A stretch of DNA of 64,000 nucleotides, from positions 69,626,001 through 69,690,000 of the forward strand of contig OX597819.1 in the NCBI GenBank assembly GCA_951406725.2, written 5' to 3'. The position numbers were made by a program, and so were the translations under genes. Positions 2,373 to 61,358 of this stretch are shown here, piece by piece. This DNA comes from Octopus vulgaris (taxonomy: Eukaryota). The stretch's first letter is position 1; every line of letters begins with the position of its first letter. The notes under the pieces are model-generated. The model had not been told where the DNA came from. It worked only from the letters and a program-made list of their open reading frames with translations, and made no database searches.

Positions 2373-3018
2373 TTGTTCAGCTCCATAAGTAAAACAAGCA
2401 CCAGTAATAACAATACCAACAACTATAATATTAGTATCATGACGAGCAAATGAAATTCGTAACAAATAACTGTTATTATACGGAATATCAACAAAACTCA
2501 GATTCAATTACCAACGTGTCAATTACCAAACTATTTTAAGGTGTGATGTCGTGTGGGTTGTTGTGTAATGTTGGAAAATATTTGAGTGTCTCTCACTTTT
2601 AAGAAAAACATTGGTGACATTCGAATTGTTGAAAACAAAGTTATACCGTAAATATCTAACTGCTGCGCCATTTTGTTTACGTCAGTTTTACGTTAGAAAG
2701 TATGCATATAATTCGTGTTCAGTGTCAGGTTATTTGGAAAGAAAGCAGAAATTTAGAACTAGACATTTTTCATGATTCTTTTCTTTTTCCCTCTCTTCTT
2801 TGGGTTTCTTTTTTGTCAGCAACAAGTGTTTTAATGTTCGATGAGCCTAATATCTTTGCATATATAGTTTGACGAGGGCTAGCTGACTGAAGCTTTGCCC
2901 TCAGAGCCATCTCTTTGTACCTCTGAATTTCAGATACTATTCATTTTTCCCAGCTGAGTGCACTGCAGTAACTGAAGTCAAGTGTCTTGGTCAAGGACAC
3001 AATGCACCGCTAAGAATT

Positions 3019-3252
3019 GAGGCGGCGAACTGACAGAATCGTTAGCATGCTGGGTAAAATGCTTAGCAGTATTTCGTCTGCCGTTACGTTCTGAGTTCAA
3101 ATTCCACCGAGGTCGACTTTGCCTTTCATCCTTTCAGGATCGATAAATTAAGTACGAGTTTCGTACTGGGGTCGATGTAATCGACTTAATCCCTTTGTCT
3201 GTCCTTGTTTGTCCCATCTATGTTTACCCCCTTGAGGGAAATAAAGAAATAG
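3019..3252 (+). mobile_element. tRNA-derived SINE, family B (Meta-SINE-like core)
   Basis: GGCGGCGAACTGACAGAATCGTTAG head, B-box GAGTTCAAATTCC, core GACTTTGCCTTTCATCCTTTCAGGATCGATAAA, tail AATAAAGAAATAG. Many copies in the window. Confidence 0.85.
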
Positions 3253-3354
3253 GAATGACCTTGCGAACGTGTGCGCTACGTCGCGCGCTTTTTTTCTCTC
3301 TCTCTCTCCCCCAAACGCACACATTCATACATACACACTTACATACGTATGCAT

Positions 3355-3950
3355 GTTTACGGCACGATGTTGTTACTAAGACAATTTGCAATGCCATCCT
3401 CAAAAAAGACTGTTCTGAAATAAACTTAGAAAATCCCTGTTATGGAATACATTCATAAACACCAACTCAAGGAATACTGGTGGAATATTCCCATCAAAAC
3501 CTCTGTCAAATGTAAACATAACAGGCCGGGTATTGTTGCTTGGGACAGAGGGGCAAAGGTATGTAACATCATAGTGGTCAGTTGCCCTGCATATATGAAT
3601 ATCTCTTTGAAAATCAAAGAAAAAGAGGATATCTACGGACAACTGCTTCGAAACCTCCAGCTATGAATTCATATTCATACGAAGAATTGGAGCGCTAGGT
3701 TTTGTTAGTAAATGCTTAAATGAGAATCTGGATAAACTGAGATTTTCAGGAAGAGAAATCGATCGGCTATTTCGTACATTACAAGTGCAATCTGTGAGTA
3801 GGACAGTAAAAATGTTCAAGACTTTTCTCAACTTCCAGATGTGAAGTTGCCTGTGTTAACTACATCTCAGAGATGGAACCTTGTATCTGTGTTGGTAACC
3901 GGCTCCCTCCTTAGTGGAAGATTTATAATAATTGAAAAAATAAAAAAGAC
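3355..3950 (+). mobile_element. 3' fragment of an RLE-type (R4/Dong-like) non-LTR retrotransposon, degenerate
   Basis: Translates RHDVVTKTICNAI...YWWNIPIKTSVKCKHNRPGIVAWD...VSCP (RHD and RPD-like motifs), with frameshifts and an A-rich end. Confidence 0.8.
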
Positions 3951-4069
3951 ATATATATATAATTGCAGACATACATATATACGTACATATATGTGTATAA
4001 AACAACATATATATGTGTAAGCATAAATGCGTATTTGTATTTATGTGTGCATGTAACTATATGTGTATG

Positions 4070-4123
<54 letters not shown>

Positions 4124-4157
4124 TATTTGTATTTATGTGTGCATGTAACTATATGTG

Positions 4158-4251
<94 letters not shown>

Positions 4252-4442
4252 CGCTTGACAATTGGACTCGACGTGGGTGGCATATTAACGGGCATTCTGC
4301 AAATTTTCAGCAGAACAATCGGGGGATTGAGTGAACTGAGCCATGAACGCACCCAAATGCGTATCAGAAACAGCTGCAAGTCTATAATGCTTATATAAAG
4401 GCACAGGATCCACAATATGTTTCTTACTACCTGCAGCCTTAT

Positions 4443-4490
4443 GATTATTATTATTATTGTTGTTGTTGTTGTTGTTGTTATTATTATTAT

Positions 4491-4527
<37 letters not shown>

Positions 4528-12351: not shown

Positions 12352-12569
12352 GGTGTGTGTGTGTGCGTAATATTTGTTATTTTGTTCGAGTCAAGCTCTT
12401 GCTCCCTTGAAGTTCGCTTGTGGTTACACATGTCTTCAGGTAAGGATCTTGACTCGGTCGAACCAAACTATCGAGTAGTATTTTCAACACGAAACAGATA
12501 CACACACTCACATACACACACATACACACACACGAATACATACTCGTACACACGCACACATGTGTGTAT

Positions 12570-12921
12570 GTCCATCAGCGTTCACTGTTTTTCCCTCGTT
12601 CATGTCTAACGACCCATTCATGTTCTTTTTTCGTTCGGTTTCCCCGAATGTCTCCACTGTCCTGTTTTTGCTCCTAACTTTGAGCCTCCATAAATACAAA
12701 ATTTTATTTTGGTCTTTATGGGAGCAATTGTCTTCGAAGACTCATATTGTCGTTGATTGCTCGAAATGGAGAGTAGATAGTCAGCCCACAACTGATGGAG
12801 GGTCGCTCTTTGTATTTTTGTATTACTTGCCTTGTTTTCCATTTTTTCCCCCGTTATTTGTGTATTTAATTCTTTTGTTTTCGTATTTCTTGTTGTTTTC
12901 TGTTGGTGGCGTCCTGTACCG
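12570..12921 (+). mobile_element. Terminal-repeat-like element ending GCGTCCTGTACC, with a permuted hammerhead-like motif
   Basis: Related to 61021-61358; abuts a TA array; motif at 12722-12798. Confidence 0.6.
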
Positions 12922-40799: not shown

Positions 40800-40969
40800 T
40801 TTTCCTTGGGGCTGGCCGGATCGGAGCGATCTTAAGATTAATCAGCCGAAATTGCTAGGATGATCCGGTTCTTGACTGAAGATTGAAGGCTTCGAATGTC
40901 CCGTCCGTGTTTTTTGTATAGTTTTCTAAATGTTTTACGTTCTTTTCCCAGTTTGTATTTTTCTACATA
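40800..40969 (+). mobile_element. Partial direct copy of the 3' part of the 41044-41709 element
   Basis: Near-identical to 41542-41711; includes the permuted hammerhead motif. Confidence 0.85.
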
Positions 40970-41043: not shown

Positions 41044-41709
41044 TGTAAGTACATATTCCTGTAAATTTGGTACGACTCTACACACTGTCTCTCTCTCCTA
41101 CATTTCTCTGCCTTTCACACTTTGCATTCTACTATGATCTGTCCCCTTCTCTCTCTGTCTCTCTACTTCTCCTTTTCTCTTTTCTCCCCTCTTTAATTCC
41201 TTCTTTCTCTCTCTTCTTCCCCTTTTGTTGCCTTCGTCCCTCTTTCTCTCTCTCTCTTTGTTTCCTTTGCTCCCTTTCTTTTCTCTCTCTTCTGTCACGT
41301 GACCGCTGGTCAAAATCAGCCTTTTGGCCTCCGACCACTGCCGTGAGAACATCTGTTGTCTTCGTCTGCCGATAAAGGCATTTATTCAAAATACGCCAGT
41401 CGTAAGACACCCGCTGTTTTTGTCCTGTTTTTACCATTATTGTTTTTTGTATTTTATATTCGTGTGGCATCGTCCGTTTTTCTGTCCCTGTTTCGTATAT
41501 ATTCGATCCTTCTTCCAAGAAAGAAGGTTAGTTAGATTAGTTTTTCCTTGGGGCTGGCCGGATCGGAGTGATCTCAAGATTAATCAGCCGAAATTGCTAG
41601 GATGATCCGGTTCTTGACTGAAGATTGAAGGCTTCGAATGTCCCGTCCGTGTTTTTTGTATCGTCTTCTAAATGTTTTACGTTCTTGTCCCAGTTTGTAT
41701 TTTTCTACA
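41044..41709 (+). mobile_element. LTR/pLTR-like repeat (TG...CA) with a permuted hammerhead motif
   Basis: Begins TGTAAG, ends TTCTACA before a TA array. CT-rich interior; related to 58935-59390. Confidence 0.6.
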
Positions 41710-42900: not shown

Positions 42901-45900
42901 CCTTAAATCCTTAAAAATGTTTTAGCCCGAAGGCCGCGGCCATGCTGGGGCACCACCGCTGAATGAGCCACACTAGTTTGTGAATCCACCTCTGATACGT
43001 GGCACTTGATCAACAAGGGAGTTCGATGCTGCTGCCCGCATCCGTGTCTCCTGTCGTGAGGTAGGTTCATCTGGGACTCCCAACAAGAAGAGATCCAGTT
43101 TAGTTTTAAAGAAACCCACATCCACACCATGTAAGTCTCTCAGGCATTTAGGGAGGATGTTGAAAAGCTGTGGTCCTCTGAAACCCAAGCTGTTGCAGTA
43201 TCTGGACCTGTATTTTGATGGTGATGTTGGAATCCTTGGCACCACGCAGCGGCGCCCCGTTCTGCGGTTGGAGTAACTTTGAATGCCAAAGTTTGGGACA
43301 AGACCCTCCAGGATTTTCCAGATGTATATTACTGCATATCTCTCCCGCCTCCGCTCCAGGGAGAAGAGGTTTAATACCTTCAGTCTTTCCCAGTAGCTGA
43401 CATTTTGCATTGAGACGATTTTCTTTGTGTAGCTTCTCTGAGTTGCTTCGAGTTCTGCTGTTTGTTTTATATTGTGTGGTGACCAAAGTTGGGAGCAGTA
43501 GTCCAAGCGGCTGAGGACAAATGTTTTCCATAGGACCATCAGTGTCTCCTTCTCTCTTGTTCTGAAAGTTCGGAGAATCCATCCAGCTAGCCGTCTGCAT
43601 TTTATCACCAGATTAGCAATATGCATTTGGAAAGATGCATCATTGCTCATGTCAATGCCCAGGTCACGCACTGATTTTGACTCAGGGATTGCAATTCTTC
43701 CTGGGCCAGTGTATCCAGTCTTCACGTCATTTACCTTTGTGTGCCAGTAGCGCAGGGCCTGGAACTTACCTGCATTAAACTGCATGTTGTTGTCCTCAGC
43801 CCACCTGTATATTGTGTCCAGCTCATGTTGCAGATGCGCAATATTTTCAGGGTTCTGTATTGCGTGGGAGACCTTTGTGTCATCTGCATAGCTAGCAAGG
43901 GTGGTCATCGTAGCAACTGAAGGCATGTCTGAAAGGGCCACTATGAACATCAGTGGCCCCAAGACAGTGCCCTGTGGGACACCGCTTGTTACTTGCGTTT
44001 CCCTGGAGGTGGCTCCATTGCTCACAACTGCCTGTTTTCTGTCTTTTAGGAAGTTGTGCAGCCACTCTCCAAGTTTCCCGCCTATGCCGAGACCACGCAG
44101 TTTGTGACAGATCATACCATGGTCGACTTTATCAAAGGCTTTTGCAAAGTCAAGATATATTACATCCACATTTGAGCCATTTAGTAGCTGTTTCAACACC
44201 CAGTCATAGTGTTGCAGGAGCTGTGTTAGGCAGCCTCTACCTGGTCGAAATCCATGCTGGGTGTCAGACAGTAAGTCATTTTCTTCAAGGAACATGATTA
44301 GTTTCTTACGGACTATTCGTTCCATGACTTTGCTGATGTGTGAGGTCAGAGAGATAGGCCTATAATTTTTAGCATCTGCTCTGCTACCTCCCTTATGGAT
44401 AGGGCATATTACCCCCTCTTTCAGTTTGACTGGGAGCTTACCACTTGCAAGAAAGCTCTGAAAAAGAAGCTGTAGCGGTTTTGCAAGGGCTCGTTTGCAC
44501 AATTTGAGAAGGATCGCTGGGAATCCATCAGGTCCACCAGCTGAGTTTGTGTCAATCTCATCAATGGCTAGTGTGATATCATCTTCTTCGATGTTGATGT
44601 ACTCAATTTTTGTCTCTTTGGCCGCTGGTAAAGTGGCAAAGAATTCTTCTGGGTTGTTTACTTGCCTGTGTCCTAGAGGTGTAGTGAATACACTTTGGAA
44701 CTGTTCGTTCAGTATTTCACTTATCCTCGTGGGATTTCCTGTGAGAGAGCCATCTTTTTGGAAGAGAGGTCCTATTCTCTGGTGCACTGTGGCTGTCTCT
44801 TTGGCAAACTTAAAGAAAGCTTTAGGGTTTGATTTTATATTTTCTATTACCCAAGCTTCTTTATCTGCTCTCTCCTTTTCATGGGACTGATGTAGACTTT
44901 TCTCAGTTTCCATTAGCATTCTTTCGAGCCGAGACTTCTCACCACTTTTGGTGTGCTTGCTCAGGCGGTTTGCAATCCTTGTCCGTCGTCTCATAAGAAT
45001 CCTCCTTTCTCTAGGGATCCTGTTTTTATTCTTGTGTGTGCTGGCCCTGCACATTGGGACATATTTGTCACATATGGCTTGTATTATGGACATGAAGTGT
45101 TTGTGTTTCATGTTTATGTCCGGTGTGGAGAGACATTCAGGCCAATCCTGTTTGAGGATCTCTTTCTCAATCGACTTCCAGTTGGCTTTATGAAAGTTTA
45201 AGTTGGAGAGATGGTGGGTGCTTCGTATAGGCTGTGTGTCTGCGGGGGCTTTTGTTCCATACGTAGACAGCTCTATTATGTTGTGATCCGAGATCATTGT
45301 CGGCATCACATTAACATTATGGATAATATCCATATTGTTTGTAAAGCAGAGATCCAGTATATTATCTGCCCTTGTTGGTTGCAGAACTATTTGCTCCATG
45401 AAAGAGGTATTTGTGAGATGGAGCAGGGACTCCACCTGTGCCTGCTGATGGTGTGTCATCCCTGGGAGCATCTGCCCCCAGGCCATTCCACATTGGGGAG
45501 GTTAAAGTCACCCATGAAGAATACACTGTTGTGCTGTTCAAGGTTGGTGAGGACTTCTCCTATTTTTGTTAGGCAGTCTTCAAACATGCCTGAGTGTTTT
45601 GGGGCGTCTGGTGGGCGATATGTAGTGCATATGACGATATTCAGTTGTCTTATGTGTACAATTTGAGTTTCACATACTGAGTTTGAATATGACAGCAGGA
45701 CCTGGGGCGTGAGGTCATCTCGGATGTACATTGCAACTCCACCATGGCTCCTCCCTTTTCTATCTGTGCGTATGACTGCATATTGCGGCATGTGTATTTC
45801 TGCATCACCTATATCGGGTTCAAGATGCGTTTCTGTGAGTGCCATGCATATAGCTTGATTGCATGTCACAAGGTCTCTCAGGAATGAAATTTTCTTTTTA

Positions 45901-46112
45901 CAGTTTCCGCGCAGCAGCCCTCCTACATTCAGTAGAAATATTTTTGTGGTGTGTGTGTTGGTGTTGGTGTCTGTGGTGGCCATCCTGCATCTGTTGGAGG
46001 TGGCCTTATGTGGTGGTAGTTCCAGCTTTGTGCTTGTAGCCAGGTCAGCTGCTGAACAATTTTTTGTGCCATGCACAAAAAAGACTGCTGTTCAGCTGCC
46101 GCCCTTCTCACA
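42898..46112 (-). mobile_element. CR1-group LINE, truncated in ORF1, with near-intact ORF2
   Basis: APE endonuclease plus RT, short 3' UTR with a stem-loop, and (TAAGGATT)-type terminal repeats. TA arrays on both flanks. Confidence 0.95.
42973..45983 (-). CDS. LINE ORF2 (APE endonuclease plus reverse transcriptase), one frameshift at ~45475-45479
   Basis: EN motifs: LLNVGGL, LTETHL, GGVAMY, YRPP, MGDFN, LDL, SDHN. RT motifs: NYRPISLTS, QHGFRPGR, YLDFAKAFDKV, SGVPQGTVLGP, YADD. Confidence 0.9.
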
Positions 46113-50266: not shown

Positions 50267-50456
50267 TAATAATAATAATGATAATAATAACAACAACAAC
50301 AACAATATCGAAAAATAACTTAGGGATGAGAACCGAGGTTAGAAATTTCCCCAAGACACCTGATGAAGGCCGGAGGGTACATCAGCCGAAACGTTGTGTT
50401 AACAACAAACAAGAAGAGGACAAATATCCGTCAAATGTAAATAATGTAAATAATGC
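49995..50456 (+). mobile_element. tRNA-head + (AAT)n + hammerhead-tail element (second assembly copy at ~52996-53450)
   Basis: A-box TGGTATAGTGG, B-box GAGTTCGATCC, (AAT)n, hammerhead core, terminal (ATGTAAATA) repeats. Confidence 0.75.
50355..50400 (+). ncRNA. Minimal type I hammerhead ribozyme motif (Penelope-type)
   Basis: GACAC-CTGATGA-A-GGCCG..CAGCC-GAAA-CGTT-GTGTT: stem I GACAC/GTGTT, stem II, palindromic ACGT stem III. Duplicate at 53353-53398. Confidence 0.75.
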
Positions 50457-53264: not shown

Positions 53265-53631
53265 TAATAATAATAATGATAATAATAACAACAACAACAA
53301 CAATATCGAAAAATAACTTAGGGATGAGAACCGAGGTTAGAAATTTCCCCAAGACACCTGATGAAGGCCGGAGGGTACATCAGCCGAAACGTTGTGTTAA
53401 CAACAAACAAGAGGACAAATATCCGTCAAATGTAAATAATGTAAATAATGCGTTTATTACAAATTCAGATTCTGGTGCCAAATTGGTGGGATTTTGTCGA
53501 TGCCGAAAACGACAAGAAGAAAATTTAGTTCTCATGAGCACAATTTGGTGGGGCAAATTTATCGATTGTGCTGAGGCTTACGAATTTTGAACTCGTGCGT
53601 ATGAAAAGAGCATTATCATCTATATGAATAT

Positions 53632-58934: not shown

Positions 58935-59390
58935 GCCAGGCCTGATCTTTTTTTCTTGGTTCGGCCGTCGTCCGTGCAACATCTCTATTCCTCCTTGTGC
59001 CTGTGAAACCTTGTATCACTGCCGTAAGGCTTTATTTCCACACACACCAGCTTAATTTAATTCATACTTAGACGAAAGGCACCTGTTGTTATCTCCCGTT
59101 ATTTGTATTTGTGTAACATTCTGTTTTTTCCGTCCTTGTTTTCGTATACATTCGCTGCATTCTTCCTAGGAATCTAATGCTCTTAGTTTAGTTTTTCCTT
59201 GAGGCTGACTGGACTGGAGCAATCTCGAGTATAACGAGCCGAAATTGCAAAGAGAATCTGGAACTCGACTGAGGAAAGAAAACTCCGAATGACCCGTCCT
59301 TCTTTCCTTTGTATTGTCTATCTGGATGTTTTGTTGTCCCTTTTTTGTATCATCTAACTGGCTGGATGTCTTGCGTTCTTGTCCCATTTT
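58935..59390 (+). mobile_element. LTR/pLTR-like repeat related to 41044, with a permuted hammerhead motif
   Basis: Shared TTAGTTTTTCCTTG.GGCTG...GCCGAAATTGC...GACTGA.GA...CGAATG.CCCGTCC...CGTTCTTGTCCCA. Confidence 0.65.
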
Positions 59391-61020: not shown

Positions 61021-61358
61021 GGGTACAGGACGTCACAGACTGTAAACAACATAAAATATGTGAGCTGAGTACGCAAACAACTGGGAAACTGGGCAAGTGA
61101 CATAACGAACTACCCTTCTTCTGTTGTTGGATGCCCACCTACTCCTCATTTCGTGCATTGAACGGCAATATAAGTCTTCGAAGGCAGTTGCTGGCATAAA
61201 TACCAAAATAAAATTTGGGATTTACGGAGAGTCAAAGTTGGGGCAGCCGACAACTAATGAAGTGTGGTTCTTTATGTTACTTGCCCAGTCTTCTATTTGA
61301 TTCTCTCGTTGTTTGCGTATTCAACTAACTTGTTTTCGTTTGCGACTTCCTATACCCA
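61021..61358 (-). mobile_element. Element with long inverted ends (GGGTACAGGACGTC / GACTTCCTATACCC), related to 12570-12921
   Basis: 61021-61137 and 61241-61358 are imperfect inverted copies; degenerate permuted hammerhead at 61116-61193 on the minus strand. Confidence 0.65.

Follow-up and report, generated by a model that had tools for sequence, protein, structure and literature searches.

Naiad retroelements and their non-coding passengers in at least six animal phyla probably use active, non-circularly permuted hammerhead ribozymes (we put the probability near 0.65), including a seventh permutation whose catalytic strand would be broken between A9 and G10.1 and rejoined by a four-way junction. 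A hammerhead ribozyme is composed of three strands, which carry the cleavage site (S), the GAAA sequence (G) and the CUGANGA sequence (C). In the octopus RNAs modeled here, these strands occur in the order S-G-C with crossing helices, rather than as the nested three-way junction with cyclic order C-G-S of types I-III, and the core is interrupted at A9/G10.1 such that the 5´ strand of stem II is located upstream of the cleavage site. The full order is 5´-P6-P5 hairpin-II-P4-III-H17-I-linker-II´-GAAA-III´-P4´-I´-CUGANGA-P6´-3´. This six-helix order is kept with different sequences in four families of the octopus genome, one of which lies downstream of a Naiad reverse transcriptase.

A decayed copy at 12.7 kb

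The motif was examined in a window of 64,000 nucleotides (G000:C6:69626001-69690000) from the 2.8-Gb octopus genome. Positions 12715-12805 of this window belong to a decayed, 5´-truncated member of a repeat that we call family A. The parts of this copy and the related elements of the window are as follows.

12567..~12929, + strand: 5´-truncated member of family A, which is a non-coding Penelope-type repeat of ~720 bp; aligns with natural copy L004 from 12567 onwards
12682..12687, + strand: P6 5´ strand, GAGCCT here, GACCCT in the family majority
12688..12721, + strand: P5 hairpin, ending directly before G10.1; also the minimum free energy (MFE) hairpin of the window copy
12722..12727, + strand: stem II 5´ strand, G10.1 being 12722, displaced upstream of the cleavage block; 129/140 cells paired
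12728..12733, + strand: 5´ strand of P4, the stem I-stem II interaction helix; 159/168 cells paired
12734..12740, + strand: joint between P4 and stem III, 5´ side, with GAA facing AGUA (12772-75)
12741..12752, + strand: site block, with stem III 3´ strand (12741-45), H17 (A12746) and stem I 5´ strand (12747-52)
12753-56, + strand: 4-nt linker connecting stems I and II
12757..12770, + strand: GAAA block, with stem II 3´ strand, GAAA (12763-66) and stem III 5´ strand
12779..12784, + strand: P4 3´ strand, AGTCAG here, AGACAG in the family
12786..12798, + strand: stem I 3´ strand and CUGANGA core, with G12787>C and A9>G in the window copy
12799..12804, + strand: P6 3´ strand AGGGTC, beginning directly after A9
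12911-12920, + strand: 3´ end of the family A copy, GTCCTGTACC, with (TA)n directly after
40810..40882, + strand: family B ribozyme body in an upstream partial repeat; matches the four-helix descriptor
41552..41624, + strand: family B ribozyme body, intact, with the same fold and a kink-turn-like joint
59203..59275, + strand: family B1 ribozyme body with the same fold; matches the four-helix descriptor
61022..61339, - strand: another family A copy, decayed further, whose 5´ end bears an inverted partial copy

Judging from hammerhead numbering, cleavage is predicted after H17, between 12746 and 12747. The core helices are those drawn in an initial annotation of this locus: stem II (GAGCAA 12722-27 with TTGCTC 12757-62, then GAAA), stem III (TCAT 12742-45 with ATGG 12766-69, leaving A12746 as H17), stem I (TTGTCG with CCACAA 12786-91, the single mismatch being C.C at 12751/12787) and a core, CTGATGG at 12792-98, with a mutated A9. 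The extension ATTGTCT/AGATAGT that it added is also present, but the register that is entirely Watson-Crick in the family is CTGTCT/AGACAG (12728-33/12779-84). Likewise, the pieces that it named within 12715..12805 lie where it placed them, but the motif is larger and begins at 12682.

The annotation had further asked whether a family consensus would restore CGACAA-CTGATGA, and this is the column majority over 28 of the 29 other family A copies. Loss of CUGANGA or of the complementarity of stems I and III from the consensus, which it had named as fatal to its reading, did not emerge, as A9 is present in 27 of the 28 copies and both stems are paired in the family census below. Exact CTGANGA occurs in 24 and GAAA in 27 of these 28 copies. 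The A9>G (12798) and G12787>C changes are thus private decay of the window copy, which, because of these changes to A9 and stem I, is probably inactive (12682-12804).

A descriptor of the four helices plus the core gives three matches in the window (40810, 41552 and 59203), compared to one in 100 dinucleotide shuffles, both strands being searched. The window copy of family A fails this descriptor, and only five of 30 family A copies (L001-L030) pass because the family is about 85% decayed. Rfam reports no hammerhead at 12560-12915 or in family C, and none is found among the 150 of 328 matches listed. This silence is uninformative, since Rfam also misses a canonical-looking minimal hammerhead at 50352-50399.

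The latter is one of two copies (50352-50399 and 53350-53397, + strand) of a canonical-looking minimal type I hammerhead in another repeat family, with CUGAUGA, one extra A, a short stem II and GAAA, which Rfam fails to detect. Two other features were noted in the window. A near-intact element at 42973-46091 (- strand) carries an 842-amino-acid open frame preceded by a 211-amino-acid frame; we take it to be LINE-type, given reverse transcriptase motifs in the larger frame and the resemblance of the smaller one to an AP endonuclease. Adjoining the 12.7-kb family A copy, an inverted repeat at 12380-12490 (- strand) encloses CUGAAGA. This CUGAAGA (12439, - strand) was rejected as a repeat family, with two matches in the genome, the second of them weak.

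Repeat families A, B and C

Family A yielded 3045 first-look candidates, of which 40 were scored and show 84-89% identity. The ~720-bp element has a fixed 5´ end in 30 loci. Its copies are flanked by (TA)n and related microsatellites, are variably 5´-truncated and are often preceded by partial tandem or inverted copies, which are described as structural marks of Penelope-like elements and Naiads (Craig et al., 2021; PMC8557442, as far as its available text extends). By its flanks, truncation and partial copies, family A is a Penelope-type non-autonomous element or retrozyme. It holds neither the open reading frame that defines Naiads (N-terminal GIY-YIG plus reverse transcriptase) nor any Penelope-like protein motif that we looked for inside the element. 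In one locus, another Penelope-like reverse transcriptase fragment (L005:600-1050, + strand) lies directly upstream of a family A copy, and is probably the insertion site rather than part of the element.

Family B, represented at 41.5 kb, is younger than family A and forms tandem arrays, for example at G000:C6:85.54 Mb. Family C was found with the descriptor in flanking DNA and has 618 exact 3´ ends. Its tandem units are ~835 bp long, and many pairs lie 832-886 bp apart. One example is:

L184, G000:C2:39.96 Mb: family C, copies 99-100% identical, often tandem

Because its copies are 99-100% identical and often tandem, family C has moved recently and needs an active driver.

The initial annotation called the 12.7-kb family unrelated in sequence to that at 41.5 kb. 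This was an overstatement, for although the stems differ, families A and B are distant relatives: in alignments of the 3´ 330 nucleotides, the A-C and B-C scores exceed all 200 shuffles and the A-B score exceeds 198 of 200. Family A also aligns along its length to family C.

Core helices and strand order

Among 28 of the 29 other family A copies, the paired cells number 126/140 for stem I, 129/140 for stem II, 129/140 for stem III and 159/168 for P4. Between representatives of families A, C, B and Naiad, the stems adjoining the core are rewritten by compensatory change while Watson-Crick pairs persist at 20/20 (stem I), 19/20 (stem II) and 16/20 (stem III) positions; when strands are swapped between families, these stems retain 1.7-1.9 pairs per 5 bp. 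The eight representatives used for stem comparison are descriptor matches and hence selected. Censuses of unselected copies give the same majority pairs and intact cores (28/29 copies for A, 20/20 for C, 19/19 for B and 18/20 for Naiad), and the majorities of all four families carry the CUGANGA and GAAA core and an NUH cleavage site. Pairs G10.1-C11.1 and U16.1-A15.1 are present in 8/8 representatives.

The upstream strand assigned to stem II always starts with G10.1 opposite C11.1 and forms four or five Watson-Crick pairs of five in 8/8 representatives, compared to zero to two of five for the strand that follows A9. CUGANGA is therefore not directly continued by the 5´ strand of stem II, a continuity that is characteristic of type SGC hammerheads. 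Two other hallmarks of type SGC are present. P4 joins the distal ends of stems I and II, and the linker from stem I to stem II is short, being 1-5 nucleotides in the A, B, C and Naiad representatives and 6 in two others.

MFE folds of five natural copies, computed by a pseudoknot-free method, give other structures. MAFFT failed to place the helices of different families in register.

Helices P5 and P6 and the stem III/P4 joint

Both ends of the broken core run into further helices. P5 ends on the base before G10.1, and P6 begins downstream of A9, its partner being the strand immediately 5´ of P5. The initial annotation was right that a scrambled architecture is common to diverged families, of which there are four in this genome, but it overlooked these two of the six helices. 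In a census for which the helices were placed by hand, and in which the slid controls lean towards structure, P5 is paired in 214/232 (A), 169/170 (C), 92/95 (B) and 73/80 (Naiad) cells, P6 is paired in 161/174, 85/85, 95/95 and 55/59 cells in the same order, and slid controls are lower in every case. For family A (29 copies), the controls give 84-113 cells for P5 and 42-111 for P6. The junction-proximal majority pairs of P5 and P6 are Watson-Crick in 28/28 instances, compared to cross-family means of 1.0 and 1.2. The linkers that close the break are 0 nucleotides long in A, C and Naiad, and 2 nucleotides (UU opposite UU) in B.

Automated searches recover these helices in part. A greedy search of single copies for P5/P6 in the eight representatives is significant only in C (0/500) and B2 (1/500), and found neither helix in the Naiad copy. 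In constrained alignment folding, P5 is recovered in C alone and P6 in B alone, and the tight junction is obtained in no family under a scheme where the forced-open body penalizes that loop.

The joint between stem III and P4 is also structured. A 3-nucleotide bulge with tandem GA occurs in the B group and Naiad (5/7 representatives), whereas A and C have GAA opposite AGUA while their helices differ; the joint GA is invariant in alignment A1. We take the former to be kink-turn-like and the latter loop-E-like.

Relationship to Naiad elements

In the available text and metadata of Craig et al. (2021; PMC8557442), Naiads carry no canonical hammerhead, only ‘HHR_core’ and ‘HHR_half_core’ tags, the latter on eight families. 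We inspected by eye the last 400-600 nucleotides of 26 of the 54 Naiad consensus sequences, whose names assume that the sequence file follows the order of the metadata. Six of these 26 ends (Obim, Ovul, 4_Dst, Plae, 2_Movir and 3_Chem) show the split fold with each of the four core helices at least 4 bp long, and two show it imperfectly (Bfor, with a 2-bp stem I, and Esco, with a mismatched stem II). Four others (Parc, 3_Nbra, Hpol and Smim; three nematode, one spider) have an uninterrupted type CSG core, and the remaining 14 have no motif resolvable by eye in the inspected stretch. Equivalents of P5 and P6 are visible in the split-fold Naiads checked, and for seven of the eight ‘HHR_half_core’ families inspection by eye yields a CSG or a split form. 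Naiad_Ovul, which carries only that tag, fits the split fold and so provides an independent test. Since the fold occurs in four octopus families and, by eye, in Naiads of a ctenophore, cnidarians, an acanthocephalan, an ostracod and cephalopods, the initial description of an old and diversified class appears apt.

The Ovul-type motif has 184 exact copies in this genome (control 0), and lies downstream of a Naiad reverse transcriptase on the same strand in 9/30 loci, with none on the other strand. In fold and position, families A, B and C agree with the single Naiad family of this genome, and none was found to resemble its 3´ UTR in sequence; ‘Naiad-type’ is for this reason a label that we infer for family A. 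A search with the Naiad reverse transcriptase for an intact Naiad or other intact driver returned mostly broken Naiad remnants and no intact one. It also returned a young Penelope-like family at (TA)n, with reverse transcriptase preceding GIY-YIG in a 683-amino-acid open frame:

L254, G000:C3:134780500-134787500, positions 2457-4505, - strand: open frame with reverse transcriptase, Zn-finger-like linker and C-terminal GIY-YIG; Neptune/Nematis-type

This family is a candidate driver with no sequence link to A, B or C; its 3´ UTR lacks the split motif and resembles none of the three.

Two cnidarian Naiad ends, which precede Naiad_Amil and Naiad-2_Movir in file S5 of PMC8557442, carry a motif that looks to us like a twister ribozyme. 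Their sequences suggest that Naiads may swap ribozyme classes.

Copy 5´ ends and the predicted cleavage site

If cut RNA serves as template, the 5´ ends of new copies are expected to gather just after H17. For family A, we counted 5´ ends in 93 copies chosen by their 3´ end, drawn from the first 100 of 214. Among the matches listed, a start at +6 to +14 of the predicted cut is seen in 13 of 66 at-risk copies (background hazard 0.053 per 20 nucleotides, P = 4e-5), 11 of 92 begin just after it with a looser alignment, and one of 93 starts within 2 nucleotides of it. This clustering is suggestive of cutting, and a short master element or polymerase stalling could likewise have produced it. Family C, where breakpoints are exact, has 4 of 59 at-risk copies starting at 0 to +19 (+7, +7, +12 and +16; P = 0.22), none exactly at the predicted cut. 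Copies running through the predicted cut amount to 53/93 in A, among the matches listed, and 55/76 in C, and their templates must therefore have been uncut or religated. Canonical Penelope hammerheads, which are retained in each copy, pose the same read-through puzzle.

Discussion

The reading that we favor for intact copies, and consider reasonably probable, is that of a hammerhead acting in cis, in which a single molecule would cut itself after H17 (12746 in the window copy) and thereby trim transcripts for retrotransposition. In this model, P4 and stem III would together make a hairpin, and pairing of its loop with the sequences on either side would create stems II and I, giving two pseudoknots. 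The 1-5-nucleotide linker would tie stem I to stem II, and together with P4 would hold these two helices together as in type SGC. Because A9 continues into P6 and P5 leads into G10.1, the resulting four-way junction would keep A9 stacked on G10.1 in the absence of a covalent bond, and stem III would be folded back towards P4 by the kink-turn-like or loop-E-like joint. Successive ribozymes would cut tandem or read-through transcripts into unit-length RNAs, which a Penelope-like element acting in trans would reverse-transcribe into (TA)n, perhaps as circles after religation.

A geometric estimate indicates that a ring made by stem II, stem III and a 5-9-bp P4 may be strained, and this bears on an unlikely arrangement in which the same helices form across two units, one hairpin contributing its flanks and the following one its loop, so that only tandem or dimeric RNA cleaves. 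Tandem units such as the family B array and the family C pairs are indeed common, and small Penelope hammerheads are said to have been reported by Lunse in 2017 to cleave as dimers. However, P6 closes each unit onto itself, and the kink-turn-like signature of the joint suggests a built-in fold-back. Moreover, type SGC RNAs are predicted, some with a 0-nucleotide link between stem III and the interaction helix, and those tested do cleave, according to the available text of Eckert et al. (2023; PMC10085705). Also unlikely is a hammerhead-derived but catalytically silent structure, retained as a recognition or priming signal for reverse transcriptase. Such a signal would fit the majority of copies that run through the predicted cut (for family A, among the matches listed), the absence of a sharp 5´-end spike in family C and the 14 of 26 Naiad ends without a motif in the inspected stretch. 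Against it, CUGANGA, GAAA, the NUH site and G10.1-C11.1 persist in lineages with rewritten helices, and four other Naiads have the uninterrupted type CSG core, a form shown to cleave (PMC10085705, available text).

We regard as very improbable that these are ordinary type SGC hammerheads whose stem II is formed by what follows CUGAUGA (an additional A and then GGGU), the pairings upstream being mere coincidence. In A and C, a downstream stem II of 4 bp, two of them G.U, can be drawn, and is paired in 100/140 cells in A, but this strand offers two of five Watson-Crick pairs in A and C and zero to two in the B group and Naiad, and it constitutes the 3´ half of P6, which is entirely Watson-Crick in four families. 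The downstream stem II was rejected on these counts relative to the upstream strand. Chance complementarity within a repeat is scarcely credible, and unless the cross-family pairings have been misread they already refute it: the window copy alone fails the strict descriptor and copies inside a family are not independent, but the window matches compare with 0.01 per shuffle, and the same six helices recur with different sequences in four families.

The cis-acting split hammerhead that we prefer has its nearest relative in type SGC, comprising HRIMA-1 and its variants, whose in vitro cleavage depends on the I-II helix (Eckert et al., 2023; PMC10085705). In the text available to us, type SGC is found only in metatranscriptomes and not in genomes of known organisms, which are said to hold no such RNA except one bacterial GCS candidate. 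The octopus element resembles type SGC in its order of site, GAAA and CUGANGA, its short I-II linker, its distal I-II helix and its complete core. In contrast to type SGC, its CUGANGA block is interrupted between A9 and G10.1, with the stem II and interaction strands placed 5´ of the site; the break is spanned by P5 and P6, and both strands of P4 connect to stem III. Given SGC-like working in our model and the absence of one defining SGC feature, we file the split form as a variant of type SGC. Type CSG, known from two metagenomic sequences, has the same cyclic strand order, but it keeps CUGANGA joined to stem II, which the window element does not (PMC10085705, available text).

Among mobile elements, family A resembles Naiads in that it targets (TA)n, is 5´-truncated, occurs in partial tandem and inverted copies and bears its motif near the 3´ end, but differs in lacking an ORF and detectable similarity to the Naiad 3´ UTR (PMC8557442, in part). 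It resembles non-LTR retrozymes, which are non-coding, tandem, hammerhead-bearing derivatives of Penelope-like elements; these and Penelope pLTRs, however, carry nested type I hammerheads, whereas the octopus element is non-circularly permuted and would presumably be missed by the retrozyme descriptors of that study (bioRxiv 10.64898/2026.07.22.740005, available portion).

In a search of open-licence papers, we found no report of the split fold or of permuted hammerheads in Naiads, and no paper testing a break at A9/G10.1; none appears in the available text of Perreault 2011 (PMC3088659), Forgia 2023 (PMC10162972) or PMC13725137. The available text of Eckert et al. assumes that CUGANGA is directly continued by its stem II strand (PMC10085705), and the A9/G10.1 break contradicts this assumption, which is explicit in the six-permutation scheme. 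If the split hammerhead is real, it would be, as far as that search of the open-licence literature extends, the first non-circular hammerhead permutation in animal genomes, and a class with high copy numbers would be escaping standard ribozyme descriptors. The youth of family C makes the role of Penelope-type ribozymes a testable question. The split fold can also account directly for the hitherto unexplained ‘half cores’ of Naiads, and, if true, would overturn both the view that Naiads lack hammerheads and the rule against split blocks, with thousands of copies in animal genomes.
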